Source: Leptogorgia sarmentosa (Eukaryota). From it: a stretch of 64,000 nucleotides of DNA. Under the pieces are notes generated by a model. It did no database searches. It had not been told where the DNA came from and saw only the letters and a program-made list of their open reading frames with translations. This document shows, piece after piece, positions 1,125 to 50,322 of the stretch; position 1 is the stretch's first letter, and each line of letters starts with the position of its first letter. Position numbers and translations under genes: made by a program. The DNA is taken from the NCBI GenBank assembly GCA_964658305.1, contig OZ210885.1, forward strand, positions 18,228,001-18,292,000, given 5' to 3'.

Positions 1125-1548
1125 TTTTGTTTTGAACGACGACAGGCTTGTCGACTCCGACGGTGCAATGGAGCCTGGACCCAAACAAGTCGCCGCACCC
1201 AGGGGGGTCACTACAGGTGACGCGGATCGACAGGGGTGGTGAGCCCCTCCCCCGTGCCATGATGCAACCGTGAGTGGATTGCTTCAGGGATCCCTAATGA
1301 TGGTGAAATGGTCAGATGATGATGTTAAGCTAGACAATTACAACAAGAGCAGCAACCCCTACATCAAAACCTGTGCAACCCGCTCGGAACAAGTCCAAGC
1401 GAACCACAGGGCAAAAATTGGAACAAACAGACAACCCAATCCGATACAGGCAGTACAACCAATAAAGGCGACCGTCGAGACCCTAGATCACTACATAGAA
1501 CACAAAGAACGAAAAAGGGAAAAGAGGGAGGGAAGAGAGAAGGGGAAC

Positions 1549-4500
1549 TTAGGTAATAAAGTCCTGAGTAAACCGGATCCAATCCTGCTCAATGAGCGTT
1601 TGTATCAGCCCGTCAGCCAACCACTTGTGAACAAAACTGTCCCGAGGGCAGTGGCGCTTGTGCATGCACACCAGAAAGCGAAAGGTGGTCTTTGCTTTCT
1701 TCAGGGTGGTGGTAACATCTGGGGCAGTGTGGTTGAACCATTGGGCGTTGCGGCTTAGCCAAATGTTGTGTCGTAGCACACCCAGCAGGGCAGAAAAGAC
1801 AACGGGCACATGGATATTGGGAGAGAATCCAAATAAAATAGTATTCGCTGGTAGTGAAGGAGCATTCGGCCGAAATTTACGAAAAATTGACTGGAACCGG
1901 TCGAGGACCGATACCGAAAACGGGCAAGAGCAAACTCTCTTGCGCACCACAAAAGCACAGCGGGTCGACTCTCATGCCAAAACGGACCAGATGATTGGCC
2001 ATGGGTAAAATGCTGTGAAAAGACAGCCAACCAGTGTCTTGGACGGCCCGCACAAAGCGCCACAGGTGTAACGAGGCCCACGCAGCCTGCCATGGGACGT
2101 TAATGTCCCAGTCCCGATATTTCGCCACTGAGCGATGCTCAACAGCGGAAGAGCGCCGGAGCAGGGAATACCCTGTACGAGCTGTTAGCTCAGAGAGGGG
2201 AAGCAACTGTCCTGAAGGACGAGGGATGACCCAATCACTCTGCTCGTTCCTACCTTTCAGGAGGACCCACGCAGTAAACACACCCCGATAACAGGGTGGA
2301 AGTTTTTTAATCAAATATGCTGGCAGAGGATCACGAGTAAGAACGTGAGGTACCGACTGTCTAAACACGCTAGTAACAAGATGGGAAAAAAGGGATGCCC
2401 ACGGGTGGCTATGATGAATAAAAAACCAACCAAGCCATACGGCACGAAGGGACAAAAGTTTATTGTTGATGTCGATGACATTCAGGCCTCCTTCACTAAT
2501 GGGCTGGACGACTGATGTGCGAGCCATCCATTCACGCTTTTTTCCCCAAACAAAAGGAAAGACTATCTTGTTAACTTTAGTCACGACTACTTTTGGCATA
2601 TCAAAGGCAGTCGCCTGGTACCAGAACAGAGACAGACCAAGAGTATTTACGATCAGAGCTCTTCCCCGAAACGACAATTGGCGCTGTTTCCAGACACCCA
2701 ATTGCCGCTCCTTCCAGACACCCAATTGCCGCTCCAACTTCTCCACTAAGGCGTTCCAATCAGCTCCCTCTATATTTGCTATACGACAGCCCAACACGGT
2801 TATAGCGTCGCTAGACCAGTTCAGTTGTATTGGTAGGTCGGTCCGGCCCTTCCAGGACCCGAAAAGGAGACCATGACTTTTGTTAATATTGAGCTTCGCA
2901 CCGTAAGCCAGCTCGTACTGTTCAAAAAGTGAAAAGAGTGACCGCAGGGCCTGCTCAGAATGTACAATGATGGTTGTGTCATCCGCATATTGAAAAATTT
3001 TGACCGTCTCCCCATTTGGCAACTGGAAGCCGTCGACATTTAAATCTTTCTTGATGGCACACGAGATGGTTTCAGCCACAATAATGTATAATAAAGGGGA
3101 AAGAGGACAGCCCTGACGAACTCCCCGAGTGACACTAAAAGCGCCACTGGTGAACCCATTTACTAGAACATGTGAAAAGATGTTCGTATACAAGAGCTTA
3201 ACCCACCCACGAAAGGACAGACCAAAATTCATTTGCTCCAAGGCCCGCAGGATGAACCCCCAATCAACCCGATCGAAAGTCTTTTCTTGATCTAGTGATA
3301 TGATTGCACCTCCAGTATTATTATTATTACAATGGTTAACTAGATCCTGCAGGCCCTGACATTCAGACCTGAGAAGCGTCCAGGAACGCCACAGGCTTGG
3401 GATTCAGAAATGACAGAAGATAGTACTGTTTTTAGGCGATTTGTAAGTACCTTCGATAGTATTTTGTAGTCCGTGCATAGAAGGGAAATTGGTCGCCAAT
3501 TCTTGACATCTAGTCGATCATTTTTCTTGAATAGGAGAGAGATTAAACCAGTACGCTGGGAAAAAGAAAGAGCACCTCGTGCCAGGCAATTGTTGAAAAC
3601 TGCCACTAGATCAGGACCCAAAATGTCCCAAAAGGACTGATGGAACTCATAGGGTAGCCCATCTAGACCTGGAGATTTGTTACGCTTGAAAGAATTCAAT
3701 GCACGCTGGCACTCCTGTAGCGTGACCTCGCCTTCACAAAGCAGGGCTTCTTCTGCAGACAAGAATCGCTCCAAACTGTTTACGAAAAACGACTGATCCA
3801 GAGAAGATAGAATGGACGCAGAAAAAAGTTGCACATAAAAAATGCACCAAACTCGCAAAATCGCGGAGATAGATCTTACAATGGTGCCTTGTGCGTCTCG
3901 GATGCCAGTGAACAAACGCCTCGATGCTCGCACCTTCTCCTGTCTAAAGAAAAAGGCAGAGGAAGTTTCACCTTCCTCGGCCCACTGTTCCTTGCCCCGA
4001 ATGCATGCACCTTCTGCTGTGTAGTGGTGCTCGAGCTCCAATTTATCCTGTGCCTCCTTTATTAGGTGATTCACATCTTCACCGTCGGCAACTTGTTGAT
4101 GAAGATGTTCGAGGGTGGATTCTAGATTATGCATATTCGACCGCCTCGAACGAGCCTTGCCCTGAGAAAAATGACGAATGATTTCCTTCAAACGAGCCTT
4201 GCCTGCCTCCCACCAAATGCCCAGAGACGGAAAAGTAACTTTCTCAGACTGCCACGAGACCCAGAAGTTACGGACCTCCGTGCACAGAGTCTCTTCACGC
4301 AGCAAGGATGTATTGAATTTCCATGCACCAGGACCACTTTGCGGTAAAGATGGAAAGGCCGCGTGGAGGAAGACATAAGAGTGGTCCGAGCGGAAAAAAG
4401 GGAGAATGGTTACTTCCGAAACGTGTTCATGTAATGATGATGATATCCAAAACATGTCCAGTCGGGATGCCTGGGAGCCGTTGGCCCGGCGCCACGTATA

Positions 4501-5106
4501 ACCCCGCTTGTCTGGATGCGCTAGGCGCCAAGTATCGACCAGATCGCACCTATCAGTCAGTGAGGAACGAGAGGCAGGCCAGTTGTAAGCCCAAGGAGAG
4601 TCAGGATTACAACCCAATCGGTCTACATGCGGATCAGCTACCACATTGAAGTCTCCGCATAAAAGAGTGGAAAAAGAAGGGTCAATCATCTGATGTAGAG
4701 AGGAAAAAAAGTCCTCGCCAGCTTGCTTCTGATTTGGACCATATATATTTACAACTTGAGTTATGGACTCAAGGTCAACATGCTTGAAACGCACGACAAT
4801 AACCCGACCACTCGTGTCTCTGTTAATACTTTCCACGCGAAAACACGGCTTGAATAAAATCGCTACCCCCGCACTACGAGTAGTACCTGGGGAAGATTCA
4901 GCAAGATATTGTTGCAAATTATTGTGCTCGAGAGTCTCCGTCTGTAACCAAGAGAGGAATTCCTCTTCAGAGCGACTATGCATTTCTTGTAGAGCAATGA
5001 TGTCAGGTTTGGCACAATTTAGCCAGGAAAAAAGAGTTTGACGATTACGAGTATTGCATAACCCTTGAACGTTTAGGGTTATTCTGGTTACTTCTTGGTT
5101 AGCCAT
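1549..5106 (-). pseudogene. Family A copy 1 ORF2 (APE endonuclease, reverse transcriptase, C-terminal Zn finger), frameshifted
   Basis: ORFs 3340..5106 (LNVQGL, GDFN, SDH, KNWRPISLL), 1877..3241 (GVRQGCPLSP, QYADD) and 1549..1950 lie in different frames. Confidence 0.92.
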
Positions 5107-5175
5107 AATGAGTGTGTGAAAAGATGTACTGTATAAATGATATTACTATTATTATTCTATATAAACAAGGGAGAC

Positions 5176-5736: not shown

Positions 5737-8700
5737 TAAAATACTTCGCAGCCATAAGCTGAATTGCATATTTTTACAAAGAAAGTTAGCTAAATGTGAT
5801 ATAGAATATAAAAAGTTTATAAGCCATTATGATGACATTCTATATAAATATATAATTTTATACACAGGATGTTTATTACTTTAATATACTATAAAATTTA
5901 AAATTATTAAAAATATAAAGTCATTTCAATAACATTAGGTAAAAGATTTGCGGCATGAAGCCACAAAAAAACTAGTTTGAAAACGATTAGTATTACATCT
6001 AGGAATTTCGAATTTCCTATCGTTTCTTAAATCATAAAAAGAAGTATGTGTAGGCAGCAGCAAACTTCGTAACTTATGATTTTCTTCAGCAACTACTGTT
6101 TGAAATAGACTAGTGCAAATATTTTCATGATGAACAGACAGTGACTCCAATCCACAACTAATTAAAGCGTCTTCATAATTAGTGTTAGGACAGATGATTC
6201 TAATAGCTCTTTTTTGTAATCTTTCCAGTTCGGAACGCAAGTATTTTGGCAATGAATAGTAAATGACAAGGATACCATAATCAATAACAGATCGAATACA
6301 TGTAACGTAAAATAGAACCAGATCATTCCGAGGGATACTGGCCCATTTGAGTTGAATCAGATAATAGATTCGTTTGGATACTTTTTTAACTACCTCTTCG
6401 ATATGTAAATTCCACGTCAGCTTTGAAGGACTTTACAACTCTAACACTTTTATTGTTAATAAGTATCGGGTTAAAATCACGAGGGACTTTTGAGAAGGAA
6501 ATACGGAGCTCCTTACATTTCTCTTCATTCAGCTTCATTTTATTGTTTTGGGACCATTGTGACATTTCATTAGCAATTGTCTGTGCTCTACTCTGTTGGT
6601 TTTTGTCAACTGTTTCCGATGCTGTCGTATCGTCCACGTATTTTCATAGGTCAGTATCAGTAATGGATAAATCATTTATCATGATTAAGAAAAGCCATGC
6701 ACCTAATATGGTGCCTTCAGGGACGCCCGAAGGTACTGCACCCCAATCTGAAAAACATCGTTGTGAAAGTTTGACTCTTTGGAATCTGTCGCTTAAGAAG
6801 TCAATAATCCAATTTATGACACTTCGTGGTAGATCTAGCTGAAGTAGCTTGTTGATCAAAATTCTATGATCGATTAGATCGAAAGCTTTTTGATAATCAA
6901 ATAAGATTATTCTAGTTGTAGAACCGGTACCGTCAAGCCCCGAGGTCCAGTTGTGCACCATACTAAGAAGAGCAAATATCGTCGATGATTTAGGAATTGG
7001 TCCGTACTGATTAGGATCGATTTTCTTCAAAACAGCGGGTTTCACATAATCTTTAACAACGAAATGCTCTGCGACCTTCGAAATATTAGGTGTTAATAAA
7101 ATGGGCCTAAGTTCTTTTTTCAGATCCTGTACCATTTTTACTTTTGGCAGCGGTGAAACATTCGCAAGTTTCCATATTGAAGGTAGGCGTTGTTGCTTGT
7201 AGGATGCATTTAGGAGTAGACTAATTGGGAGGGCAAGGATTACAGCATACTCACGCAAGAGCCAATTTGGCACTTCGTCAGGATCACCACTTTTACTAGG
7301 GTTGAGTTTTTGTAACTGTGACAAGACCCTTTCTTCCGAAACTTCTAGGAATTCTGTGTTTTCTTCTAAGTTAAGTTGTTCTAGCGGTGAAGATAATTGA
7401 TATTCTGATAAGGGCTCAAGAAAGGCTGTATTTATTCTGTTTGCTAATTCATGTTCTGATATATCTTCAAGACCAGCAATATTTATCGAATTTATTAGGG
7501 AAATATTCATTGATTTCATTCCTCCTAGGCGTTTGATTTCACTCCACCAAGCTTTAGGGTTTTCTTTCTCTTCACTGTGGACCTAGGTCATGTAGTATTT
7601 TGATTTGCACTCTTTTCTCTCACGATTGACAATATTTCGGTAATATTTAAAACTGTTGGATTTTGGACCGTAACTGAAAAAGGCTTCTTGTCTTTTTTTA
7701 ATGAATACTTTCAGTTTATCGGTCATCCAAGGAACATCTACGGAAATTTTTTTAATCCGTTTAATTGGCATGAGAAAGTCAAGACCAATAGCCACAATAT
7801 CATAGAACTGCTTCGCCATATCTTCGCAGCTTTGTGATTGAGCAAAGATTACAGGCCAATGAATTGAATGTAAAAATCTCCCCATGGCATCTTTCTTGCT
7901 CTGACGAAGATCTCGTTTGTATACAAATGTAGGTTTTGTTTTCTTCACAATGTGAGCGGGTGAAACTACAACTGTATTATGATCGGATAATCCAATTGGA
8001 GGAAGTATTTGCGGAGACTTGTAGAACTCGTGCATGTTAGTTAAAACAAGGTCAAGTATTGCTTCGCTTCGAGTTGGTGATTTAACAATTTGTTTCAATC
8101 GAAAATGCTTAATTATTTGATTCACATTAAGACGATTGAAATCCCCAGCAATGATAATACCGCAGCTGTAAAATTTTGCTTCAGTTTCACTTAATGTCTG
8201 AAATAAGTGGCTCTGCATACTGGTATCATCAGCACTAGGAGGATGATATAAGACGCCAGCTATAATTGAGGAAAATTCACGAGGAAGTCGTCTAGGTTTT
8301 ATATGGAGCCATAAGATCTCGTGTTCAGAACAACATGAAATTTCTGAAAGAATTTTGAGTTTCGTATCGCCGTCTCCGATGTAAATACAGATTCCGCCAT
8401 GGTTGTTTGTAGTTCTATCTTTGCGTATGACTGTAAATCCAGGTATGCTTACAACACTGTCTGTAATTGGGTCATAGAGCCAAGTTTCAGTTAAAAAGGA
8501 TACGTTTATCTCATTTTCCATCATAAATTCGCGAACTTCGTCTATTTTGGGGGCCAAAGATCTCACATTAGACACCATTAATTTTGGAATATAATTACTA
8601 ATCCTCTGTTTTAATGTAGTGGTATTCGGTTGATGGAATTCTGTAGTAAGGGGCTTACATGGCAATATACAATTATTTGGAAAGTCAACAATTTCGTTTA

Positions 8701-10231
8701 TGGGAATATTTATTAAATTACATTTCCCATGACAGTTCACCAATGTGGGGTTCGGTTCGGAGGATAAACTGGAATTTGCAATAATGGTTGTGGAGGGTGA
8801 GGTGGGGGAGGGGGATTGTGTGTTATTCGGGTTACAAGGTCTAAATACTTTTTCCATCCTGGGGGACGACTGTGATTCCTCGAATGTTGTAAAAAATGGT
8901 TTGGATTTTCTCTGTTGTAACTAAACATATTTTGTTTCCTACGCTTTCGGTTCTTACTTGCCTGCGATATTTGCCTGTCGGAACGATGGCTAATTCGCAC
9001 AGGGATCGCAAAAGACTCGTTTGAACTGGGTACGCCTGATTTATCCTGTTGATTAACTGCATTTCCCCCACCATTGCTCGATGATTTATTCCTGCCATTG
9101 CTCGATGATTTATTCCTGCCATGCGGCTGAGACTTTTTGTTGTAATCGTTATTGACTCGGCTTATTAGGTTGTGGTATGAGATCTTTTATACTTTGTCTA
9201 TTACGAGTTATTGCATTTACATCAGAATTAACATCCGACACCTTGTCTTCAAAGCATGACGGAGGGACGCCATGGCCAGATCTTTGTGTTGTTTCCTTGC
9301 ACAATAAGCTATCATTATAAATTTGTTCGGCTGACTTAATTGTGTTTTCTTTACCCTTTTCAATACAAACGCTATGGGTTGGCGATTTCCTTTCCTCTTC
9401 AAGTTCGACGATACGTGATCTTAAATTCAAATTGTCTGTGCGCAATTTGCATAACTCTTGTTTACTTGTTTCAATGATTTCGTCTTGTACGGAAATTCTT
9501 GTCGATAAATTTACTATTTGCGATTTAATCTCATTTTTAAATATTGAGAAACGTGTCTCCATTGAAATCAATTTGTCGTCCTCGCTTTGCTGCAATGGGC
9601 CAGAATTATTACTTATTACGTTCGTAAAATTGTTAGCAGGTTTAACAAGCGGCGAGTCGTTTATGTTTTGAAATGAAATGTCGATGAAGTCCTCAAGCTC
9701 CGTAAGAGTTGATGAATCGACAGCCGATATCGTGTCTTCTTTTGAGGTTGTGGCATTAGCAACATATTGCTCATTCAGACCCTCATCCAACGAATTGTTG
9801 TTATTATTTAAGGCATTCTCAGGCACCGTGTTTGAAATTACTGCCTCGGAACATAGACAGTACGCTGGCGAGCTTTCTTCATTCATACTAATGTCAATAA
9901 ATAGTTCTTTTAATTAGTCGCCCGTTTTGCTCTGAAAGGTTAACGTACCTCGCTCATAGTTCCAACTAAGAATCAAGTCAGTATTGGTGCTTGTAAATTT
10001 TTTATATCTGCCTCCAGGCGACGACCATGTGCCCGTTTGAACAATTACACATTTAATAAAAATTTTCAGCATTTCATAGCTGTCCGTCCATCTGATTCGC
10101 TTTCCGTTATAAGTAAAACATCCTACATCTTTATATCGGAGAAATTCCTCAACATCCCATTCATTTTGATTATTTTTAAGGGAGCTAACAGAGCCCATTT
10201 GAACATGACTGTCGGCCATTGTTATTTATTC
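5737..10231 (-). mobile_element. Nested CR1/L2-group LINE (Daphne/Crack-like), near full length, decayed
   Basis: ORF1 pieces 9914..10219 and 9149..9886 (coiled coil); APE 7583..8857 (LTETWL, AGDFN, LSDH); RT 6644..7519 and 6386..6637 (YVDD); C-terminus 5935..6252. AT-rich. Splits the host ORF1 cleanly when compared with 54690-54720. Confidence 0.85.
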
Positions 10232-12039: not shown

Positions 12040-12065
12040 TCTTAGCCAAAAGGCCGAGAAGTGAT
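12040..12065 (-). pseudogene. U2: U2 snRNA nt 1-26 (5' part of the gene split by A1)
   Basis: Minus strand ATCACTTCTCGGCCTTTTGGCTAAGA (one mismatch to canonical ATCGCTTC). Confidence 0.93.
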
Positions 12066-12276: not shown

Positions 12277-12629
12277 TTATGTTGGATATAGGCAAATCCA
12301 CCCCCACTTGGGAGCGTGCAATGGATTTCCCTAAATCGAGGAGGGTGCTACCGGCACGCAAACGACTAGGGGGACGATCCCTACCTCCTCATTAAATGCA
12401 CCCCGAGAATATTTATTATTCTGATGCCTCGATTAGTGCATTTAATTCTATATAAAAAACAACACATACTAGGACGGAACATGGACCGATGCTCGCCTGA
12501 TACAGGCAGCAACAGGGATTTAAAAAGAGAAACGACCCTACCGAACCGATTCGGGCAGTACAACCAACTAAGGCGACCCCCCTTCATGGAACGGCAGAGG
12601 AAGAAAAAAGGATTAAAAAACCTAAAAGA

Positions 12630-14784
12630 CTAAAAGGAGAAGACCAGCTCCTCACCCTCGAAATGACCTACAATACCGCGAGCGAGCCAATCCCTCTCAA
12701 AAGATCGCACTTGAGCAGGGAGTTTGCACCGACGACCAAAGAAATGAATGACAAACTTTATTTTGGCGATGGCTTTCGCCTGGCAATCCGAGGCGATTGG
12801 CCGCTTACCACGGAAACGTGGAGCATCCACATGATGATTGGGGGCACGATGTGCCGTCGTTCGGACGAGAAGCCGAACAAGAGTTCCGTGACAGTAAATG
12901 GTGCGGCAGTAGGACATATCTGCCACAAATTGTAGTGTACCCATGCCACCAAAAGGCAGGCCATCTCATATTCAAAGAACAGATGTTCTAACGTTTCTTC
13001 ATCTGCTCGACAGAAACAGCGCGTATATCGATGTTGGGCATGTTAAAGCGAGTTCCCAAGCGAGAGCCCGTGTAGAGAATGCCGTGCGCTATTTGCCAGT
13101 TCAGGTCGATCACAAGCCGGTCAAATGGACATAGATGGAGCTGACTCCAAGTTTGGGGCCAGTGTAGAGGTCCATACTGTGGCGTGAATTTGGCTATACA
13201 ATGTGGCTGGCTATTTAAATTGTTTTGACTTATTTGGTACACATTTCTACTGGATATGTTATCCACCAGTAGTGGAGAGGCAGACGAGGCAGCAATGCAG
13301 AAGTCATTGCCTGTAAGACCACTGTCGAGAGATTGCCACACCCGAAAGATGATACAATAGAACTCGGGCAAGGCTCTCAAACGACGTTGGGAAAAAGAAG
13401 ATAAAAGGGCCTCACATGGCTCGCAACCAAGCGCCCGAGGCTTTCTCAAACTGAGAATACACCTCGAAGGTGGCCTCAATGGATTCATCCGTGGTAGGCG
13501 CAATCGTTGCATCGTCGGCATACCCAGAGCATTTAAACTGTTCCAGCGATTGAGGGAGAAAAACCCCAGTTATACCTGGGGCAAAGCAGATGTTAGCTGT
13601 TAACACCTCAATCGACAGAACGTACAATAGTGGAGAAAGTGGACAACCGTGCCGCACACCCCATGAAGGGCGAAAAAAGGAGGAGGTCCAGCCATTAATA
13701 ACAACAGCCGATTCGACGTCGGAGTTAAACAATTTTACCCATCGGCAGAAATCCAGACCAAAATTTATGGTGTCCAGAGTCCGTAAAAGAAAACCCCAAT
13801 CGACCCGATCAAATGCTTTTTCTTGATCCAAAGAGAGCAGAGCGAGGGGAATGTCCTCATGCTCCGCATACTCAATTGGATCACGGATCAGAAAGAGGTT
13901 CTCTGAGATAGTACGGCCTGGAACACCGCATGTCTGATCTGGCCCTACAACAGACCCGACAACGGCTAGGAGACGCCCCGAAATAGCGCGAGTAGCTATT
14001 TTATAGTCTGCATTGAGCAGACTAATCGGCCGCCAGTTCTTTGTCTCCAAGCGGTCGTTCTTTTTGTATAGTGCTATGATCAGACCTCGACGCTGAGAGG
14101 TGGAAAGCTGGCCGGCCTCGTAAGCAACGTTGAGGACGCGAACCAGATCAGTGCCAAGGCATGACCAAAACTTGAGGTAAAACTCCATGGGAAAGCCATC
14201 GGAACCTGGAGTCTTTCCTCTAGCCATACCAGATAAGGCAGTAAAACACTCCTCTAAAGAGAGAAGACCCTCACAACACGCACGTTCCTCCTTACTAAGG
14301 CGCGAGAAAGCTTTGACAGCATCTCGTCCTGAGCAGATGTATCACAGGGTGCCGCAGTAAAGAGTCCGGTGTAATACCGCCGCCAGACATCCAAAATCTC
14401 AAAAGGGTTGTGGCGCACGGAACCGGTGTCGGGGTCTCGAATGGAGTGCATCTCTTGCTTTGCATGATGCTTAGTGGCTAAGTTGAGAAAAAAGGAGGAG
14501 GAAGTTTCCCCCTCCTCAGCCCACTGACAGCGAGCACGAACTTGCGCCCCTCTCGCTTTCATGCAAAGCAATGCCTCGGAGCTCTTCCTGTACCTCGCAA
14601 AGCTTAGCGAATGCAGAGGTATCCCCTGCTTCAAAAAGACGTTGCAGCCTGTGCATTTGCTTGGTCAAGAAGGATTTATGCTCGCGCCGGTCCAGCTCCT
14701 TTGACCGACTAAAAGTCCATGTCACTTCACGAAGGTAGAATTTCCCTTGGTCCCACCAATCCAAAATAGAGGGAAAGGCCTCAG
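12630..14784 (-). pseudogene. Family B ORF2, RT and C-terminal part; frameshifted, with an internal deletion after the RT core
   Basis: KNWRPISLL, DQEKAFDRV, GYADD and HGILYT motifs across ORFs 12630..14830. Confidence 0.88.
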
Positions 14785-25102: not shown

Positions 25103-25730
25103 AATTTTTTATTAACAATAAAGAAGAATTTTACATTGGTATAAGATATGTGGTAGTAAGTAACAAGATTATGAGAGAATATAGGAATATATGGCTATTT
25201 AACTGGTTAGTTAAGGAATATATCAGTGTCTTTTATGCACTGTTACAATCAGTGTCTTTTATGCACTGTTACAGGAAGTATTTAGTTAAATTTAAGGATA
25301 TTTACTGCTCTTGAAAAGGGAAGAGCAATGATCGAGAAAAAAGACGTTGTTCAATTTTCACAGAAATGTTCAAGTTCGTAACTAAATTCTTGATATTGTT
25401 CTTCTGATTTAAAAATGTCATTAGGTACTTTAGATACATCATTGAAAGCTAAAATGTTTTTCATGATATTTAAAATATTGTCTCTACTATTATCTAATAA
25501 GTAGGCATGATGATCTGCAAACTCATGAAAAGGATCCATATGAACTTTGTTTCATTCTAGAACATGTACATCGATTAGGTAGGATGGAACTTGAGAGCCA
25601 CAAAGTCTGCACAGACCAGGTAAGCTCATATATTCGGCTTCTATGTCTTTGTGCAGGTATCCATTGATGTCAAAGAACAAGGTTTTGGGTATTTTAGCGA
25701 ATGAATTTTCCTTAGGTTCAAAGTCATCGA
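25103..25730 (-). mobile_element. AT-rich insert at U2 nt 38/39 with a Utopia-like 3' end but unrecognised upstream content
   Basis: Junction AAAAAATT|TCTGTTC is identical to 49674/49675, and the terminal ~55 nt resemble 49675-49730. Confidence 0.55.
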
Positions 25731-28168
25731 AACATACAAACCAATCCAAAACAGGCAGTACCACCAGCAAAGGCAACCACCCAATCGTCATGGTGACACA
25801 TTACATGCAAATGAAAGTGTTATGACCACTACCACAGCTCATCTGGGAATATAACATCATCATCTTCAGGAGGCACAACACCAAACAACCCTCCTGCTAA
25901 CCATAATTCTGAATACCGGTCCCTGGGACAATGTCTGCGCTGCATACGTAGCGTAAAACGCAACATGGATTTGGTGGAAGAAAGTAGATCCGCATGTTCT
26001 ACTGGGATCTGATCGAATCGCCATCCGTTGCGTGCTACCCATATTCTGTGTTTGATGATACCCAAGAGGCAAGGAAAAATTGGTGGAAGTTTCTCCGCCT
26101 GTTTGTACCCGATTAAAATCTGCGCTGGAGTGGGGGCAGTGACACGAAACCTCGCACGATGTAACAGTGAGGAGTACCAGTACTTGCCCACAGTGATCCA
26201 CCAACATTCCAAATCGCATCAAGCGGTTTGCAGTCGGCAAGATGCCATGGGCGATCAACCAAGCCGTGTCACACACTGGTCTGATGAACCGCCAAAGATG
26301 GAGGTTCATCCACACCGTACGCCATTCAATGTCTAGGCCCCAAGACCGGTACCGCTGCACACACTTGTGCTCTTCTTGGTCAAGTTTAGAGAGAACCCGG
26401 TAAACAAATCTGGCAGACAATTCAGTCAAAGGACTAACTTGTGCACCAATTCCTTTTATTACGATAACCCCATCCGCCCTTTCGCGATGGAGTCGGAACC
26501 AGGCCTTCATTATTGATTTATAAAAAGGAGGAAGAAGATCTATTGCATATGGAGGAGGCGACGGCAGCATAAGTATGTCTTCTATACTTCGCCCGCTGAA
26601 CGCTATACGGAGATGGTATCTAAAAAAGAACATCCCTGGAGCATCAGGGTTTTCAACCAACCTATGTACCCAAACTGCATGGAATGAGGTGACCTTCCTT
26701 TGTATATCAACTATCCCTAGACCCCCTTGTCCAAAATGTTGCGTTGCTGAGGTCCGAGCCAGCCATTCTCGGCGCTTTCACCAGACAAAGGGGAACACTA
26801 CCTTCTCCATAGCAGTCACCACCTGTCCAGGCAGAGCCAGGAAAGACAGGTGGTACCAAAATCTACTATACCCGAGCATGTTGGCTACAAGGGCACGCCC
26901 GTGGAAGGAAAGCTGCCAAGACTGCCAAGAGGCAATCACTTTGGTGAGCTCCCCAACTTTGGAATCCCAATCCTCATCTTCCGACTGGTTGAAAAGTGTG
27001 GAACCGATAATTTTTATGTTAGCAGACGACCAATCTAGATGTACAGGTAAGTCGGTACGTCTGACCCATGTGCCTATAAGCAACCCATGTGACTTTGTCA
27101 CATTCAATTTTGCTCCGGATGCCTTTTCGTATCGCTCAAAAACTGAAAAGACAGCTTTTAGAGCTGTATCCGACATTACAATTAGTGAGGTGTCGTCTGC
27201 GTACTAACAAATTTTTGCCCGACGTGTACGGGGCAGTGGAATGCCGTCTATCAAGGGGTGTGCTCGAATCGCACATGCAAGCGTCTCAGCCATTAATACA
27301 TAAAGCAGGGGTGACAATGGACACCCCTGACGTACTCCACGGCTGACAGAAAACCAAGCAGATGGCGTGCCATTAACTAGGACACAGGAGAAAATGTCGG
27401 TATAAAAAAGTTTGATCCAACGCCAAAATGAGTCCTCAAAATTCATATTTTGCAACACTCGCTGCAGATATTGCCACTCGACACGATCAAAGGCTTTTTC
27501 TTGGTCTAGTGACAAAATGGCTCCACCCAATCCCCTACGATTAACATCTTGTACAATATCTCGCAACAAACGATTATTGACGACAGGATTACGTCCAGGA
27601 ATACCACAGGTTTGGTCAGAGTGAATGAGATGACCCAGTACCTGTAGAAGACGGTTGGCTATTGCTTTAGCTGCTATTTTATAATCAACACAAAGAAGTG
27701 TTATTGGGCGCCAGTTCTATATTTCCAGTCTATCCCCACGCTTATATAGTAACGTGATTAATCCCTGCCTCTGCGATGCTGATAACCTACCCTCTCTGTA
27801 AGTGATTCATAACTTGAACATAGTCATTTCCCATCACAGGCCGAAAGCGCTGGAAAAATTCTGCTGGAAATCCATCTATCCCCGGAGATTTGGATGATGC
27901 CATCCCATCTAGAGCAGCCTTGCACTCTGCTGATGTAAGCTCTCCTTCACACGATTGCGCCTGTGCTAGAGATAACTTCAGCACTATCTGGTCTAGGAAG
28001 AACTCCTGTTCTCTCTCATCGAGCCTTAATGACATAAACAGTTTGGCATAAAAGGAGACCCATGCACCTGCAATGGCCATTGCGGAATAAACAATCTTTC
28101 CAGACAGATCTTTAATTGCCGTGAACAGGCGTTGCTCCCCTCGTTTCTGCTCCAGACGGAAAAAATAG

Positions 28169-28482: not shown

Positions 28483-30499
28483 GCAGAGGAAACTTTACCT
28501 TCTTCAGCCCATTGTACCTTTGATCATATTCGCGCCCCGCGTGCCTGCTGGCGATGCGTCTCCTCGAGCTCAGCCCGGACGTCCGCCATCATGCCGCTCA
28601 CATCCTCCCCTCTATCCGCTCTACGCTTCAGACAAAGCAGTGTATTTTCTAACGAAGAGATTCGCTTACGTAAAGAGGAAGCCTGCTTTCGAGAGTATGC
28701 CCGTATTTTGGATTGTAACCTGGCCTTACCCGCGTCCCACCATGCAGAAAGAGAAAAAAACGAATCTTTCTCAGCTTGCCATGACTCCCAGAACTGGGTA
28801 ACCATGAGTATAAATGAAGAGTCTTTGAGGTGGCTTGTATTAAACTTCCACACTCCTGTGCCTCTACTAATCGCATTTGGGACAGAAAACTTCAAATAAA
28901 TACAGGAATGATCTGAACGAAAGAACGGAAAGATCCCGACTGAAACTATCAATTGGAGAAAAAAGGTGGATACCCAAAACATATCTAGTCGGCTCGCTTG
29001 ACTATTGTTGGGACGTTGCCATGTAAATTCCATTGCATCCAGATGCTTGGACGTTTGCAAATTTTTTCCATCATTTTTGGGGTCCTGAGGGGTTTCCAAT
29101 GTCGTATCCATGTTTTCGTCATTTGTGTCAAGCTTGCTTGACTCCTCATTTTCATCATCTGGGGGTAAAGGGAGTAGTTCAGCTGGTGTACTAAATAGGT
29201 CTTGGGAAGGGTCGAGCCTGGTAGTCTTAACACTGCTGGCCGCTTCCCCCCTGCCTTCCTGCTCTTCTGAGCTGTTCGAACTGTTGGTGCTACTCTCTTC
29301 ACACCGGGGTCTTTTGGTAGAAGGGGGAGACGCTTTTGATCTATCAACGTTATCCTCCCTTTCCACTAAATTATTGCCCTGCATTACCTCTGGAGGCTTG
29401 TCCTGTTCATTAGCCAAGGTGGCAGCCTTTACTACCTGCTCCTCTATTGCTGTGCTCTCACCTTCAACTGGCTCATTAATCTGTTGATCTCTAACCTCTG
29501 TAGCCGTGCCTGTCAGATCAGAAACCGGCACAGTACCTGCAGTTGGGGTAATACCTTCATCAGTGTTAGGGCCCTGTAGGCCTTGCTGCACCGCTTCAGC
29601 GAATGAAGTCAGGGTTGGACGAGGAGGAGGTACTTCCTCTCTTCGTTTTAGTATCTGGTCACTTGCCTTTTCGGCGTTCTCAGTAGAGGTGGTTGCCTGG
29701 CCTCGAGTGCCCTGTGGGCATTGCGCCCTCGTATGACCCGTTTTATTACACCCAAAGCAAGTGGGAATTTGTCCAGGGTAGAATATGTTGCACCAATGAT
29801 CTGCCACCCGAATGGATGACGGAATTGTCGTCTTTACCTCAACCAATGCATGCCTTATACCTATATGCACACCTTTGTATGTGTCTGCCTTTATATTGAC
29901 TACTTTGCCATATGGCTTAAGGGCCTCTCCTATGGCTTCATTTGGTATCCCATAGCTAAGTCGGGTGATAGTCACCCACTTGGCAGATCGGCACGGATTA
30001 AATTTTACCGGGGAATTCCGGAAGGAGAGACCTAAATGCGACACTTCTTCTCGGGCTCGTTCGGATCACCAGGTTACCCTCACCTTCCTAGGTGACAATA
30101 GCACAAAGGCTTCAAACAAAGCCTCAAAATTACTTGGGACTTGGTCCCGGAAGGAGTCAACTATGGCCTTAATGCTGACTTTGGCCTGGCCTTCTCCTAA
30201 GGGCAGATCAACATCTGCTGTGCGATTGGCGAACGGTATTTGCATTTTACTACTTTTTATATTCAAACGAACGTTTGAGAAGCGGGCCTCATGCACGCTA
30301 TTTTTTTAACTATTTTGGAAAGGAAGAAAAAAGTTGTAGTATGGTTTAACTAGTTAAGCCTCTACAGAAGACTAAAATTTTAATATATATGAGGTTTTAT
30401 AGCGAAAGGATGAGAACCGTTGTCTCACCGAAAGCAACTAGTAATCCAGGGAAGTTAATTTAACACACTAAAATAATGATAGTATACCTTAAGCTTTGA

Positions 30500-32128
30500 T
30501 TTTATTTTATCTATACTGCTCCCAGTTATTACTAGAATAGTTAACACCTCGTTAGTTACCGCTATCATGCCTACTGAACTAAAGAATGCTGTTCTTACTC
30601 CTAATTTAAAGAAAACTTCACTTGACCATGAAGTTTATTCAAACTTTAGGCCCATTTCAAACCTGAAATTTATTTCTAAAATAGTGGAGAAGTCTGTTTC
30701 ACATCAACTTACAGATTATCTGCGTGGAAATGATTTAGAAGAAAGATTCCAGTCGGCATATAAAGGGTTTCATAGCACTGAAACTGCTCTTGTTAAAGTA
30801 CACAATGATATTGTCTCGGCAATTGACAACCAGGAACATGTAATTCTGGTACTGCTTGACTTGTCTGCTGCGTTTGATATGATAGACCACAAAATACTGT
30901 TATCCAGGCTATCGAGCCGTTTTGGTATCAAGGGAAAGGTATTAGGTTGGTTTGAATCTTACCTGAAAGATCGCAAGCAGACCGTCAGTGTAAATGGTGT
31001 TACATCCTCAACTAGAAAAGTCATTTCTGGGGTACCTCAGGGGTCTGTACTAGGGCCAATCCTATACCTGCTGTATACGTCACCACTCGGAGACATTGTT
31101 CGAAGCCATGGCCTATCCCATCACTTTTATGCTGATGATTCACAGTTGTATATCACTTTCAAACCAAGCAATGAGATAGCAACTATATCAAATATTGAAG
31201 CTTGTATCAATGACATTAATAATTGGATGATTTCTAATAAATTAAAACTTAATAAAGGAAAAACGGAACTTCTTGTAATAGGATCGAATTCTCGTTGTCG
31301 TCCATTGGTTGAAAGTATCACTGTTGCTGGAGAATATATAAATGGATCAAAAACGGTTAGAAACCTTGGATCAGTCTTTGATGAAAGCATGAATCTAGAG
31401 CAACATGTAAAGGATGTGTGTAAATGTGCTTTCTACCACATTCAGAATATATCAAAGATAAGAGACTGTCTTACTCAGAACGATACTGAGACGTTGGTAC
31501 ACGCATTTATATCAAGCAAACTTGATTTCTGTAACGCATTGCTTTATGGCCTACCACAGTGTGTGATAGATAAGCTTCAACGTGTTCAAAACTCGGCGGC
31601 GCGTCTTGTAACTCGAACTCGTAAATATGAACATATCACACCAGTACTCATGGATTTACACTGGTTACCAGTAGAGCAGCGTATCAAATACAAGATACTG
31701 TTATTAACATACAAATCGTTCAATGGAATGGCACCTAAGTATCTGAGTGATCTTCTTCATTGTCATAATCCAACGAGACAACTTAGGTCAGCATCAAAAC
31801 ATCTGCTTGTTCCACCTAAAGTAAATCTTAAACGATATGGTGAAAGATCCTTCAAATCTGCCTCCCCAAGACTATGGAACTCTCTGCCTGAGAATGTTCG
31901 AGCTAGTCCATCACTTGACTCTTTTAAAACTAGACTAAAGACTTTCCTTTATAAAGAAGCTTTTAATTAAGAGTCTTATTTTCTTAATATTATATATAAT
32001 TATATATAGACTAGATCTCTAACGGTTGTATTGTAAATATGTAAATATTAATATTTTATCAAATTATAAAGCGTCTTTGAGCTTCGGGAAACGGCGCTAT
32101 ATAAATCTATTAAATTATTATTATTATT
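30500..32128 (+). mobile_element. 5'-truncated L2-clade LINE nested in the family C 5' UTR
   Basis: Open RT frame, then a terminal stem-loop and (TAT)n tail at 32070-32128. The 5' boundary is approximate. Confidence 0.85.
30567..31970 (+). CDS. L2/CR1-type reverse transcriptase, C-terminal part of ORF2
   Basis: FRPISNL, LDLSAAFD, GVPQGSVLGP, FYADDSQLY, HITPVLMDLHWLPV. Confidence 0.9.
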   Translation: MPTELKNAVLTPNLKKTSLDHEVYSNFRPISNLKFISKIVEKSVSHQLTDYLRGNDLEERFQSAYKGFHSTETALVKVHNDIVSAIDNQEHVILVLLDLSAAFDMIDHKILLSRLSSRFGIKGKVLGWFESYLKDRKQTVSVNGVTSSTRKVISGVPQGSVLGPILYLLYTSPLGDIVRSHGLSHHFYADDSQLYITFKPSNEIATISNIEACINDINNWMISNKLKLNKGKTELLVIGSNSRCRPLVESITVAGEYINGSKTVRNLGSVFDESMNLEQHVKDVCKCAFYHIQNISKIRDCLTQNDTETLVHAFISSKLDFCNALLYGLPQCVIDKLQRVQNSAARLVTRTRKYEHITPVLMDLHWLPVEQRIKYKILLLTYKSFNGMAPKYLSDLLHCHNPTRQLRSASKHLLVPPKVNLKRYGERSFKSASPRLWNSLPENVRASPSLDSFKTRLKTFLYKEAFN

Positions 32129-32728: not shown

Positions 32729-32734
32729 ATCTTA
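32729..32734 (-). other. 6-nt U2 target remnant (TAAGAT, U2 nt 22-27) between the family D 3' end and the family C 5' end
   Basis: TCGTTCAACTCAAAA|TAAGAT is the same junction as at 50339/50340. Confidence 0.7.
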
Positions 32735-35700
32735 TTTTGAGTTGAACGACGTAAGGTCCCGATCATTGCTGATCTGGTTCCGATGGTGCAATGGAACCTG
32801 TACCTTGTGCAGACGCCGCACCCAGGGGGTTGCTACACAGCAAGCAGACCAACAGAGAGTACGACCCTCTCCCCCGTGCCATGAAACGACTCGTGAATGG
32901 CCCAGACGATCAAGTGCTAAGCGCTGTCCCGCCTGGGGATCCCTAACCCTATGATGGTGATTGAATGAAGTAGATGATCTGAAACTGAAGTCGATGACGA
33001 CATGAGCACCCCTGAGTCCACCAGATACCCGTGCAATCCTTGGGAGTTAGACTCGAAAGAACCACGGGCCAAAATTGCGAAACATTACGAGGCCACTATA
33101 CACACCGCATATCGCGGCGAGACAATTAAACATATTACAGGACATACGATATTACTATTTCACGAGTTGTACGAACATTGCCTCGACAGTAAGGAAACAG
33201 TGTACACACAATTAGACTGCCCCATAGACAGCAGTACAACCAATCAAGGCGACCCCCGTATGGTGACAGTAACACAAAAAACAACACACAAGATGGTCAA
33301 GTGCGAAAGTCCTGTCGCAGAATGAGAACGTTGTCGGGAGTGAGGATCCCGATGGCCCCCTTTGCCAGCCATTCACGAGCAAACAGCTCTGGTTTGCAAT
33401 TACGATGTTGGACATGTAGCAGGAATTGAAAAGTTGACTTGACACGGGATAGGATAAAGTCCACATCCGGTTTGGTGGAGTCGAAACGGGAAGCATTCCG
33501 GGTCAACCATAATTGGTGGCGGATAACACCTAACATCGCTGAGTAGGCGACAGGAATTTTGCGAGCTGGATGAAAACCGAAAAGGAGTTCTTGGTCGGTA
33601 GGATATTTGCTGTGCAGAAGGTACTGTTGGAAACGTGCTAAGAACCAGTCGAGCACGTCGATGGCAACTTGACACTCCGTGAATAGATGGACGAGAGTCT
33701 CTGGGCAGCCACAGTGACACTCCCCCAACACTTGTATTCCAAATCGCTTTAGACGATCAGCTGTAGGAAGAATTCCATGGGCAGAAAGCCACGCAGTGTC
33801 CTGTACAGATCGCACATAGTTCCACAGTGATAAATTATGCCACACCCACTTCCACTCTTTAGCTGGCCCTAAGGTATGTGAATGTTCGAAGCAGCGATGG
33901 GAGAAAGCCTTTCGAAGAAGATCATAGGCTAGCTTGGCGCTTAGGTGGTCAATGGTTATATCCGGTGGTTTCGGTGCGCGTACTTTCCAGATCTGTTCCG
34001 AAAGGCTAGGATTCAGTGCTACCCAGGAACAGAGGATGGATTTGTAGAATGCCGGTAGAGCGTGTAAAGAACGGGTAGCGGGGCGTGGATGTAATAGGAT
34101 GTCAGTCATTGATGCTTTGTTGGGAAAAGCACGCATTGCGAAATATTCAAAAAAACCATGCCAACCATGACAAGGACCAAGTAGGTACCGTTTGATCCAT
34201 AAACAATGTAGAGACTGTATCTTACGTCCAACATCAACAGCACCAAGACCACCAGATCCCACAGGTTGGGTCACCGAATTTCGGGCTAACCATTCTCGTT
34301 TCTTGCCCCAAATATATGAAAATGTCAATGAGTTGATCGTTGCCAGTATCTTCGACGGTATCTCTTGGAAGGTGGCGAGATACCAGAAAAGACTCAACCC
34401 AAGAGTCTTTGTTACCATAGTACGCCCACGAAAGGAAAGGTCACGACGCTTCCAGGATTCCAACAATTTGGTGTATTTGTCGAGGGGGGATTGCCAATCC
34501 TTTGAACCGTCATTGCTGATACGACTCCCGAGGACACGAATACAATCTGCTTTCCAATTGAGTTCCACAGGGAAGGTTGACCGAGTACGCCAGGCACCAA
34601 GCAGAAGGCCCTCACATTTACTTGGATTGAGCTTGGCTCCCGATGCTGATTCGTACCGCTTACATGTTGCAAAGAGCTGCAGGATAGATTGATCTGACAT
34701 GACCAACGCCGTAGTATCATCAGCATATTGGCATAACTTTTGTCGAGAGCCATCAGGAAGAGTAAAACCATCAATGCTCGTGTCCTTCTCGATGGTAATA
34801 GCCAAAGCCTCGATCACTAGGATATAAAGTAACGGGGAAAGTGGGCAACCTTGACGGACACCCCTGGAAACAGCAAATGGTTTGGATATAAAGCCATTGA
34901 CAATAACCGCTGAGGAGATATTGGTGTAGAGGAGGCTCACCCACCGTTGAAATGATGGACCAAACCCCATGGCGGATAAAACGTGTGACATGAACGGCCA
35001 TTCCACTCGGTCAAAGGCTTTTTCTTGGTCTAAGGATATAATAGCCGCCGACAAATCTTTCTCATTCGCATACTGAACAATGTCTTTGATTAAACGGATA
35101 TTTGCAGCCGATAATCGACCAGGTATACCGGCAGTCTGAGACAGGGAGACAACCGACGATATGACGAGCAGGAGGCGATTTGCTAAAGCCTTCACGGCGA
35201 TTTTATAGTCTGTATTGAGAAGGGTAATGGGGCGCCAGTTCTTTGGGTTAGTACGTTCGTTTTTCTTATATAACAATGTAATTAAACCTTGCCGTTGAGA
35301 TGTGGACAAGCATCCTTGGTCATACGCTTCATTAAGGACATCTGTGAGGTCTTTTCCCAGTACGCCCCAAAAGTTGATGTAGAACTCAGCTGGAAGGCCA
35401 TCCAACCCAGGGGTTTTGTTCCGTGACATGTTCTTTACCGCTTCAAAGCACTCTTCCACCGTTAGATGTCCTTCACAAAGTTTCTGGTCGTGCGACGACA
35501 AAGTGTGCTCGATATGGGATATGAAAAAGTCAATGTCGTACTCCGTTAAGGGTTGTGAAGTAAATAAATCAGAGTAGAATTCGCGAAACACTTCAAGTAT
35601 GCCATGCGATGTCATTGCCAACGAACTGTCTGGCCTAGCAATGGATTGGATCACAGACTTGGTCGCTCGACGTTTTTCCAGTTGAAAAAAGTATGAAGTG

Positions 35701-37870
35701 GACCGTTCCCCTTCTTCTGCCCATTGTACCCGTGCACGAACTTGGGCTCCTCTCGCTGCTTCCTGCATGAGTAGTTCCAAATCAGCTTTTGCTTCCCCTA
35801 AGTATTCATGGACATCATCTCCTTTCTCCATTCTTCGATTCAGATGGTAAATTGTGGCTTCGAGAGATTTTTTCCTTGATTTGCGTCGAGATGCTTCGCG
35901 ACGTGAGAAAGTCTTAATTCGCTTGCGTAACTCGATTTTTCTGCTATCCCACCAAGCCGTCAATGAGGAAAAGCGATGCTTGTGTTTTTGCCATGATTTC
36001 CAGAAGGTTTCGATCATATTGCGAAAAATTCGGGTTCGTGAGGTGCATAGTATTGAATTTCCAATAGCTTGAGCCAAGGGCTATCTGATCCGGCAAAGAG
36101 AACTCCATATACACGTAGCAGTGATCAGAGCGAAAAAAGGGGAGGATGTCGGTGTGTGAAATACAATCAACCAAGGAAGAGGAGACCAGGAAGAGGTCCA
36201 AACGAGAGGCTTGACTACCATTGGGACGGTGCCAAGTATACTGTTTTTCGGTTGGATGATGTTTTCGCCAAATGTCTGTTAACTCAAAAGTATCCATAAG
36301 AGTACACAATGAGGAAGGATTATTATAAGCCCAGGGCGAAGAAAGGTTACATGATTGGCGGTCAGCCGCTGGATTCAACACGGTATTGAAATCGCCACAC
36401 AGTATTATGGGACAGTCCGGTTGTAGAGCAGGAACCAACGATTCAAAGAAAGGAATGCCGTCCTTTTTATTATTGGGTCCATAAATATTCGCAACTTGAA
36501 AAGTAACGTCCTGATGTTTAAGGATCGCTGCCACTGTTCTACCATCCTTATCGCGAAAGGTTGCTTCTAAACTCAATTCGGACCGAAAAAGAATGGCGAC
36601 GCCACAACTTTTGCTAGTACCCGGTGACGAGACAACTTGATGCGAGATTTTAGATAAGACCGTATTATTCATGTCATCTGTCCATTTCGAGAATTCAGCT
36701 TCCGAGAGAGAATGCGTTTCTTGTAGGCAAACAATGTCAGGCGTAAAACAGTTTAGCCATGAAAAAAGTATTTCCAAACTAGGACGAGCCCGTAGGCCTT
36801 GACAGTTGAGAGTTATCATTTTGATTCTGTTAGCCATTTCGAAAAAATTGTGAAATGTCAGATAGTGCAGTGTTCAGGAGGAACGTATTACCGAGGCTTA
36901 GAGGACCCCGAGAACAAGCTTGGCTTGGTTTTCTTTCGTACAAACTGAGCTGGTGGGACATTGTGTAAGACCTTGCTGCATACTGTCTTCCCCTTCGTTT
37001 TTGTGGACAGGGAACTCCGTGCTGTCCGCAGAGATCCCGCAGATGACTGGGAAAATTGCGAAATTTGAGCACTAGGCTTGCTACGGGGTGTGGTTGGGGT
37101 GGGGGTGAATAGTTGAGGGGATTGCAGGTTGGGAGAAGAGACCGAGCGATCCAATCTCAGGGGTGTTACCACCTTCTTGAGAGGTTCCTGGGAAGTCTTC
37201 GCCTCGCTTTCTTTGCCTGGGATGGGCAGGTTGACAGACGAGTTATCGGTTGCCGCTTGGGGGGGTACCTTTGCAGCAGAAGGATCTGAACCTCTGAATC
37301 TGAATCTTGCTTATGCGCCTTCTTGGTGGAAGTTGAAGAGGGGATCACTGGATCAACTGGAGCTTTTGGTGGGAGAGATTTAACCTCGTTTGCTTGATGT
37401 TCGGGAGGCAACAATGTTGAGTCAGATTGGGATGCAGATGGCGGGTGTTCGGAATTCGAACCCGTTTCACGAGGCACCACCGCGACCGCAGTCTTTGCAG
37501 AAGGAGATGTCCCCACCGGTTTGGACGGGACCACAGTCAATAAGGATGATGATGCACCTGAAACAGCGTCCGCGTAGGTGGGTGTCGCCGGTACCTTGGT
37601 GGATTCAGAGGGACTGGAAGGTGGTGATGACGTTGGCAGTTGTGACGTTGTCTCTGCAGGGCGTGACTTCTGAACGGTCTGGTTTTCACTAGGTGGAGTC
37701 ACCTGGGGTTTGGGGTGTATGTTTCGATTCTGCTTACGCGGACAATCTTTAGATACATGCCCAACTTCTCCACAGGCGAAGCATGATCGAGGTTGACCCC
37801 GATAAAAGATGTTGATGGGGTTACCTTTGATGCGTATACGGGACGGGATATCCGATTATAAAATAGGCGA
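32735..37870 (-). mobile_element. Tx1-clade family D, 5' part of ORF1 missing
   Basis: ORF1 remnant (YRGQPRSCFACGEVGH near 37760-37850, plus 37166..37702), ORF2, and a 3' UTR homologous to family A. Confidence 0.9.
33297..36837 (-). pseudogene. Family D ORF2 (APE, RT, CCHC), apparently with a single frameshift near 36040
   Basis: ORFs 35944..36837 (LNCQGL, CLQETH, GDFN, SDH) and 33297..36077 (QYADD, CHCG..E...HLF..C). Confidence 0.9.
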
Positions 37871-48000: not shown

Positions 48001-48250
48001 TGCCGATAAAACACCGCTTCGACTGTTCCTAAGGCGCTTTAATTGTTCTTCCGAGCTCAATTGTTTGTTGACATTGTTTTCCAAACCCGACACACGAATT
48101 TTCGAATTTTGCTGTATTGTAACATCGCTTTGGTCGCTACTTCCATCAGAGGACGATAAAATTGTGGATTGTCGAACATCTTCATCAATATGAAGCGTGC
48201 TGTTGAGTTCTGCGTCTGTAGTGAGTATATCTTGCTCAAAATATGCCATT
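42089..48250 (-). pseudogene. BEL gag-pol (Zn knuckles, protease, RT, RNase H, integrase) with stops and frameshifts
   Basis: CFSCLREGH, FLDNGS, WYLPHH, FYVDD, FSDAS, DYFGPF, LTPNHLL motifs. Confidence 0.92.
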
Positions 48251-48273
48251 GTAATCGTGAATCTTTGAACTAA

Positions 48274-48510
48274 TGTTACTGCCAATGAGCAAGTAAACTA
48301 CAATCTTACTCTCTTTAATTCTTCTTAAGAACATACATATACTTTTAACTATAATTGCTGCCAATAAGGCTCTTAGCCAACGTTCAAAGATTGTTGACGA
48401 TCACACTCTTTCTTAAACTGGCTTGACGAATACTAGCAAATTAATATAAGTCTCCGTCCTTTTATATTGTCGTAAAGTCATTTACATATAATTAGCAATA
48501 GTATGCTACA
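48274..48510 (-). repeat. BEL 5' LTR (237 bp)
   Basis: Direct repeat of 41826-42045. Confidence 0.92.
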
Positions 48511-49674: not shown

Positions 49675-50322
49675 AATTTTTTATTGACAATAAAAAAACC
49701 CATTTACATTGATTGACTTATGTGGTATGAGTTACAGTTAACATTACATTTATAGTGATAACTTGAATTGTTCATATTTATATGACTAATTATAGTACGT
49801 GGATTGTTCATAGTTCATATTACTGATTGTTACTGAGAGATCAATTAAAGATCAACATTAATGATATGTTTGTTCATTTGAGGACCATACTAATGGCTTT
49901 AAGAAAGGACGAAGCAATAAAGAGGTTTTTATTGATTACATCATTATTTGATTTAATTCTAAAAAGTTATTGTGGAACACCTGTGAGGTGTTGTACATAA
50001 ATGTTACGTGATCCTCTGATTGCATCAGCGCAGCAAAGTTTCCTGAGAAGAGTTCTATAGGTCTTGTTGATTTGTAGATCGTCAAGGACATCTTCGTTAC
50101 CATTGTACCAGGCACCGAGTGAGCCAACTACGAATCCAAATACTTTGGCATCCATGTTTTGTTGTTGGAAGTGATCGATTAGATATTGATATTTGTTCAC
50201 TTTACGTTGGGCAGCCATTTCAAGGGATGAGTCATCATTTTCGAAGGGGCACATGACGTCAATGATTGTTACTTTGTTACCATTTGTGATGACGATGTCG
50301 GGGCGGTTTATACCAGGAGCAC
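49675..50322 (-). mobile_element. 5'-truncated Utopia-type (NeSL clade) retrotransposon at U2 nt 38/39, no TSD
   Basis: RPDIV...IIDVMCPFEN...KVNKY...GSLGAW is a restriction-like PD-(D/E)xK endonuclease (49967-50322). Flanked by U2 GTGTAGTA and TCTGTTC. Confidence 0.9.

Follow-up and report, generated by a model that had tools for sequence, protein, structure and literature searches.

The locus described here raises the question of whether a short Sm-like tract in the 3′ UTRs of LINEs inserted in snRNA genes could be a site for assembly of host Sm proteins on retrotransposon RNA. The window (the whole stretch of DNA analysed, 64,000 nucleotides) contains a U1/U2 snRNA cluster packed with retroelements, in which an Rfam search finds one U1 and three U2. 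The cluster is interrupted by a fragmented element at 42089–48297 (minus strand), which from its motifs is presumably a BEL/Pao-like LTR retrotransposon, and by two elements at 5935–8920 (minus) and 30483–31970 (plus) that, again from their motifs, are presumably two other types of LINE. The Sm-like tracts are in the 3′ UTRs of three LINE copies, all on the minus strand: AAUUUUUG in copy A (1412–1419), AAUUUUUUG in copy B (50658–50666) and AAUUUUGG in copy D (33069–33076). These LINEs have AP endonuclease, RT and zf-RVT domains (Exo_endo_phos, RVT_1, zf-RVT) and are probably Tx1-type, as judged from domain order, target specificity and motifs; the only named homologue among the best 120 ORF2 matches comes from the octocoral Paramuricea clavata, so an anthozoan host is probable. 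The 3′ UTR of copy A (1125–1548, minus) follows a frameshifted ORF2 (1549–5142, minus; stop codon 1551–1549) encoding the AP endonuclease and RT, and ORF2 of copy D (33297–36873, minus) encodes AP endonuclease, RT and zf-RVT in two frames.

All three copies are followed by U2 sequence. The 3′ ends of A and B are both CAAAA followed by U2 from nt 22, and D is followed by U2 nt 22–27. Copy A adjoins a U2 snRNA gene from nt 22 onward (984–1124, minus; true Sm site 1039–1046), which is broken off ahead of its last loop; copy B is followed first by U2 nt 22–38 (50323–50339, minus) and then by a Utopia-like RLE fragment; and the 3′ end of D is at TAAGAT (32729–32734, minus), beyond which an apparent 5′ UTR of another element suggests a tandem insertion. 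A 5′ junction at the same target site is located at 12040–12065 (minus), where U2 nt 1–25/26 run directly into the 5′ end of a related element (74% ORF1 identity with B). Together, the 3′ junctions of A, B and D and this 5′ junction point to insertion at U2 nt ~22–27 with a putative 4–6 bp duplication, pieced together from different copies. Keno (of the Tx1 clade) and Utopia are likewise U2-targeting non-LTR retrotransposons according to the available text of PMC4640811 and PMC4494074, and Keno shares the AP endonuclease architecture of A, B and D and is reported from cnidarians. However, Keno and Utopia are described as inserting before U2 nt 39 (PMC4640811, available text), whereas A, B and D end at nt 22. 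Utopia-like 3′ ends in the window (49681–50322 and 25109–25165, minus) adjoin U2 nt 39, and one U2 gene has been entered twice, with copy B and a Utopia-like fragment nested in it at positions separated by 16 nt.

Each tract stands directly ahead of a 41-nt hairpin. In copy A this is located at 1370–1410 (minus) and has a 6-bp base, a 2-nt UG bulge on the 3′ side and an upper stem; that of copy B (50616–50656, minus) is identical, and that of copy D (33028–33068, minus) has compensatory changes relative to A and B. A metagenome locus (L044) keeps CAAUUUUUG-CCCUGUGG..CACAGG, with the tract AAUUUUUG directly ahead of the same hairpin. The preliminary description had placed the three window tracts at equivalent positions, and AAUUUUUG, AAUUUUUUG and AAUUUUGG do fall in homologous alignment columns; the covarying stem it reported, CCUGUG..CACAGG in A (1410–1405 with 1375–1370) and CCCGUG..CACGGG in D, is also as described, but those six base pairs include only one two-sided change, and it is the full bulged hairpin of 15 pairs that includes five (with 2 one-sided changes and 8 invariant pairs among A, B, L044 and D). 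The hairpin is paired in 60 of 60 cells of these four copies, a level reached in 0 of 500 shuffles, with slid registers only 28–57% paired, in a test of only four rows from which the structure itself was derived. The hairpin is real and is conserved in these four clade copies. A search of the window and 44 metagenome loci with the hairpin model (R1) returned only its four training copies, the next best scoring 13.9 bits, and an Rfam search over the module found no snRNA match at E up to 10 and nothing near gathering score in either UTR. Two other candidate folds were discarded: an HDV-like fold is unsupported by Rfam, and an ENE-like U-rich internal loop is rejected, A being the only copy with a U run 3′ of the hairpin.

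The 44 metagenome loci were obtained with a 23-nt motif located upstream of the tract, and about 30 of them are Tx1-like 3′ ends. In a tree of 21 ORF2 C-terminal pieces, drawn only from the window and the metagenome loci, A, B, D, E, L044 and L054 fall into a single clade with a support of 0.945; the U1/U5-targeting elements and the Keno-type elements form separate groups. RAU4–6G is found 0–1 nt ahead of the hairpin in all four clade copies that retain the region (A, B, D and L044). Two further members are uncounted: the degenerate L054, in which tract and hairpin are deleted, and E, whose UTR similarity ends just before the tract. Outside the clade, RAU4–6G occurs in 0/15 UTRs of U1-, U5- and Keno-type Tx1 elements (14 of the 44 metagenome loci plus window element C, with misplaced UTR limits for L015, L023 and L028), against about 4.7 expected from shuffles, an expectation inflated by two over-long UTRs and by near-duplicates (four locus pairs). 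Conservation of the tract in wider alignments thus holds within the clade, where L044 keeps both tract and hairpin, and not beyond it, which means that Tx1 elements can target snRNA genes without such a site. L014 has AUUUUUG lacking the purine, and the Keno-type loci L045 and L048, on their separate branch, have AT-rich UTRs with neither the hairpin nor the AUUGCAC loop described below. Three Keno-like loci left out of the 15 (L013, L039 and L052) do contain RAU4–7G, at places where it is absent from their close relatives L017, L042, L045 and L048; the remaining metagenome loci are 11 chance-like matches and others that are truncated, rearranged or in-clade. Protein-based locus scans of metagenome, genome and viral contigs gave 457, 5 and 20 pattern matches with 0 relatives confirmed, and the upstream motif has 0 matches in viral contigs; 10 viral loci matching a 15-nt core pattern and 5 prokaryotic genome loci matching the motif are taken as chance. 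Tract and hairpin are a real, conserved and clade-specific RNA module in the 3′ UTR of Tx1-type LINEs that target U2 nt ~22, represented by only three independent lineages.

The preliminary description had warned that short U tracts arise easily by chance, and rightly so: the window has 11 RATTTTTG sites where 13.6 would be expected, and RAU4–6G is present in 6–23% of shuffled UTRs. What is beyond chance is not the tract itself but the fact that diverged lineages have retained it immediately ahead of the hairpin, and the tract is probably under constraint.

The fit of this module to the snRNP code, as first proposed, stands in sequence and geometry for A, B and L044, and for D only in a looser U4 form. 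Canonical AUUUUU(U)G is found in A, B and L044 and not in D (AUUUUGG), which is also outside the noncanonical AUNU(U/G)UN, by the definitions of PMC12359035. The looser RAU4–6G form, of SL RNA type, is present in 4/4 copies; in the available text of PMC7986045 the default for SL RNA searches is AT{4,6}G and AAUUUUGA is one of the U4 sites of Hydra SL RNAs, and the U4 form of D matches these Hydra SL-type sites. None of the copies has the Sm nonamer consensus PuAUUUNUGPu (10.1101/857334, available text), since the base after the G is a C in A, B and L044, while D, with a G there, has one U fewer. The stem-loop is directly 3′ of the site, with the 15-pair hairpin beginning 0–1 nt past the G run, although the site is internal, 292–340 nt from the element end, rather than near the RNA end. 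U2's own Sm site is 77 nt beyond the end of A; read-through RNA would carry this true Sm site, and read-through into the target snRNA would likewise provide one for the elements of the other lineages, so an internal site is less necessary for snRNA-targeting elements, the exception being tandem arrays such as B and D, in which the element is cut off from U2's Sm site.

Among known systems, the closest likeness is to the Sm-class snRNAs, which likewise have an A, a U run and a G followed by a stable stem (PMC6954390 and PMC5131778, available text). The 8-mer AAUUUUUG of A and L044 is identical to human U4 nt 118–125, a sequence bound by Gemin5, for which AAUUUU alone binds only slightly less (PMC5131778, available text); B has a U5-type run. 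The module differs from those of Sm-class snRNAs in being inside a ~5–6 kb coding RNA, ~300 nt from the element end, and from the U4-type code in lacking a purine after the G (A, B and L044) or having four U (D). A predicted canonical Sm site is present in one third of human mRNAs, and internal 3′ UTR Sm sites can accept Sm rings, according to the available text of PMC12359035; these mRNA sites are similarly internal and flanked by structure. Here, in contrast, a transposon RNA bears the site, diverged lineages have retained it, the AUUGCAC loop accompanies it and the version in D is outside the definitions of that work. Yeast telomerase RNA, named as an Sm-class RNP in the available text of 10.1101/857334, is likewise a reverse-transcriptase template RNA, and one that carries an Sm ring. 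The candidate site in the LINEs is internal and in a translated mobile RNA, whereas yeast telomerase RNA is non-coding and has its Sm site close to the mature 3′ end. SINEU elements (PMC4494074, available text) are likewise retroelements tied to U1/U2 sequence and Tx1 machinery, but carry recognisable snRNA copies at the 5′ head, whereas the module here belongs to a LINE 3′ UTR and has no significant Rfam match.

A second putative snRNP determinant is located 240–280 nt downstream of the tract and hairpin. In copy A it is a hairpin at 1153–1175 (minus) with an AUUGCAC loop (1163–1169), which by consensus is presumably of the U1A/U2B″ type. The other loops in the window are at 50378–50384, 32786–32792 and 12316–12322 (minus), and further ones are present in L014, L016, L022, L023, L028, L035, L050 and L053. 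The loops are of 10–12 nt on freely covarying stems, 38–60 nt from the element end, and occur in U1-, U2- and U5-associated Tx1 families. CAUUGCAC is invariant in 10/10 aligned loops with freely varying flanks, which argues that a snRNP-protein-type site is already present on element RNAs, and as a mimic of snRNP-protein sites the loop has far stronger support than the Sm-like tract has. Since an AUUGCAC-type loop is near the 3′ end in 13/15 UTRs of the other lineages (once as AUUACAC), where RAU4–6G is in none, the loop can be regarded as a common feature of the groups other than Keno, and the Sm-like module as restricted to its clade.

The reading that we tentatively favour, at somewhat below even confidence, is that the module mimics the snRNP code and is a candidate host Sm-ring assembly site, through which the RNA would be stabilised. 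Once the RNA had been exported and translated, the seven Sm proteins would be loaded onto the tract by the SMN pathway, the hairpin would act as the 3′ stem required for Sm assembly, and the ring together with the downstream AUUGCAC loop would stabilise the element RNA in the manner of a snRNP. The ring could further trigger cap hypermethylation, nuclear import and entry to Cajal bodies, placing the RNP beside its target, the U2 clusters; this extension is unlikely. An Sm site and stem suffice to send foreign or chimeric RNAs to Cajal bodies (PMC5909452, available text), and Cajal bodies associate with U2 loci (PMC2196410, available text). The corresponding picture of RNA-level host mimicry for delivery, in which a LINE RNA dressed as a U2-like snRNP (with an Sm ring and a U1A/U2B″-type protein) would ride the import route into Cajal bodies, is similarly doubtful.

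A serious alternative, to which we also give appreciable weight short of an even chance, is that the hairpin is a structured-UTR domain to which ORF1p or ORF2p of the element itself binds for packaging and target-primed reverse transcription, with the tract a linker or part of the binding site that is Sm-like by coincidence. LINE proteins have an established recognition of 3′ tails (PMC4494074, available text), and structure extends over the entire UTR, in which numerous stems covary; conserved UTR blocks number about 16 including the tract, the other 15 being invariant and of at least 6 nt. Among the structured parts is a stem element, GGUCGCC-UUNNNU-GGUUGUACUG, at 1451–1473 (minus) in copy A, that is common to all Tx1 3′ UTRs of the window (other copies at 12556–12578, 25756–25778, 33232–33254, 50698–50720 and 50830–50852, minus). 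It follows the ORF2 stop, often in tandem, in Tx1-type LINEs with different targets (also among L012–L054), and has no Rfam match. The 23-nt motif occurs six times in the window and 0 times in shuffles, and the basal stem of the element covaries (26 rows, 88.5% of cells paired, 0/500 shuffles on score) in an alignment whose core columns are fixed by the search pattern. The same element is found in L034 (oriented 541–563), shortly past a 28S-like junction, in an apparent 5′ region of an R2-like element.

Two comparisons with this upstream element bear on recognition by the element's proteins, each of them both for and against. U4–7G is common within 30 nt before the upstream stem (33/72), but RAU4–7G occurs there in 0/72 (the 72 control units being distinct copies that are not statistically independent); the RA ahead of the U run is specific to the tract, and the AA is not explained by binding of ORF1p or ORF2p alone. 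The base of the hairpin (GUG-GYU with GRYUGCAC) resembles the repeated upstream element, by a hand-made, post hoc pattern that selects only these two kinds in the window. However, the covariance model of the upstream element (R2) fails to detect the hairpin, so paralogy of the two is unproven. A larger multibranch core is present at 1180–1300, 32810–32945 and 50395–50540 (minus), with GGGAUCCC and CAUGGCACGGGGG..CCCCCUGGGUGC, and its inner stems covary among A, B and D.

An improbable alternative is that the tract is kept by descent only, with 8 nt beside a constrained stem surviving without function after recent 3′ UTR exchange. Identity at fourfold-degenerate positions is 0.15–0.28 between D and the others, 0.35–0.37 between L044 and A or B, and 0.37–0.42 between A and B, such that synonymous sites between lineages are at or near saturation. 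Yet A and B, treated at first as separate examples, share 339 of 357 UTR columns (95%), and therefore count as one of three independent points rather than two of four; UTRs this similar on near-saturated ORFs show that exchange between subfamilies happens, which weakens the saturation argument. Passive survival is also compatible with the alignability of the L044 linker to that of A (p 0.002), and with the background identity of the UTRs: the entire downstream UTR of B agrees with that of D at 219 of 325 positions (67%), and 7–8 identical letters at a background of 67–70% have a chance of about 0.06 per comparison. Against it, D keeps AAUUUU and the G despite five compensatory changes in the hairpin and an upstream linker that is not alignable to that of A (p 0.17). 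The contig matches of a more distant family also end at the first A of the tract: in runs X2, X4 and X5, from other samples, matches stop at 1419, those of X4 and X5 (the more distant family) comprising only 1366–1419 and that of X2 being a loose end at 1419, all of these being match limits only. Other contigs, from X2 (high-depth) and X5, join 1335 to 1414, so that AAUUUU is kept and the hairpin and last U/G are skipped or replaced; the X2 contig with this join has about half the local depth.

More improbable still is that the tract is kept for base pairing, with GGAUUGG or the terminal CAAAAU, or as the target of some other host protein that binds U-rich RNA. The consensus fold predicts an unpaired tract. 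Predicted unpaired probabilities are 0.83–0.93 for most of the tract in D and 0.76–1.0 over the AAU run in L044, and the corresponding scores of the true Sm sites are 0.51 for U2 and 0.78 for U1. In B, AAUUU is predicted to pair with an upstream GGAUUGG at 0.85–0.99, and in A the same pairing is predicted at 0.37–0.88, varying with window and temperature. This GGAUUGG strand (1436–1442, minus, in copy A) is a predicted partner of the tract CCAAUUU in A and B only, where the helix (−6.8 kcal/mol) is better than in shuffled linkers (p 0.007 and 0.011). GGAUUGG is also found in L044 and E, but the helix is at chance level in L044 (p 0.22) and D (p 0.60); it is not conserved beyond A and B, and so neither explains the conservation of the tract nor clearly blocks the site. 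Gemin3 is able to unfold structure covering Sm sites (PMC12359035, available text). Pairing of the tract to the element 3′ end is rejected (probability at most 0.003), and an apparent complementarity of the tract region of A to U6, judged by eye, is not kept in D or L044.

Finally, it is very improbable that the module is an old captured piece of U2 (Sm site and stem-loop III) now in any of the above roles: the order of parts is that of U2 (Sm site, long irregular hairpin, AUUGCAC loop) and the hairpin of A can be aligned (p 0.001) to the part of the L045 U2 that follows the Sm site, but this is the only significant result among 12 comparisons, with p 0.09–0.81 for D, L044 and the window's own U2, and the Rfam search at E up to 10 has no snRNA match over the module.

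To our knowledge, little is understood of the means by which LINE RNPs persist in the absence of a poly(A) signal and re-enter the nucleus. If the Sm-ring reading is true, an Sm ring on a retrotransposon RNA would be a new route of host exploitation, and targeting to snRNA genes would gain a step ahead of endonuclease specificity; even if that reading fails, a Tx1-type clade with a site at U2 nt ~22 and a set of conserved 3′ UTR structures are defined. The openly accessible papers searched yielded no report of retrotransposon RNAs with Sm or U1A sites, nor of Tx1-type elements that target U2 at nt ~22; such families may be described in subscription papers, supplements, Repbase Reports or Kojima and Fujiwara 2004.

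Other snRNA genes are also associated with Tx1-type elements. The 3′ ends of the element at 12277–14341 (minus) and of L016, L023, L029, L035 and L051 adjoin U1 at ~nt 3, and no description of U1-targeting Tx1 elements was found in the literature searched. In L015 (1447–1564), a Tx1-type element has inserted close to the 5′ end of a gene that Rfam identifies as U5 (62.9 bits), and L036 and L050 have a short junction resembling this U5 junction. The UTRs of the U1/U5 lineage have a conserved GC-rich multi-stem domain with visible compensatory changes (L014–L016, L022, L023, L028, L035, L036, L051 and L053), including a GGUUCGANUCC hairpin that is presumably T-loop or B-box-like. In the window, 52250–56935 and 56935–61620 are a 4.7-kb direct duplication with 99.98% identity, which is either very recent or an assembly artefact.
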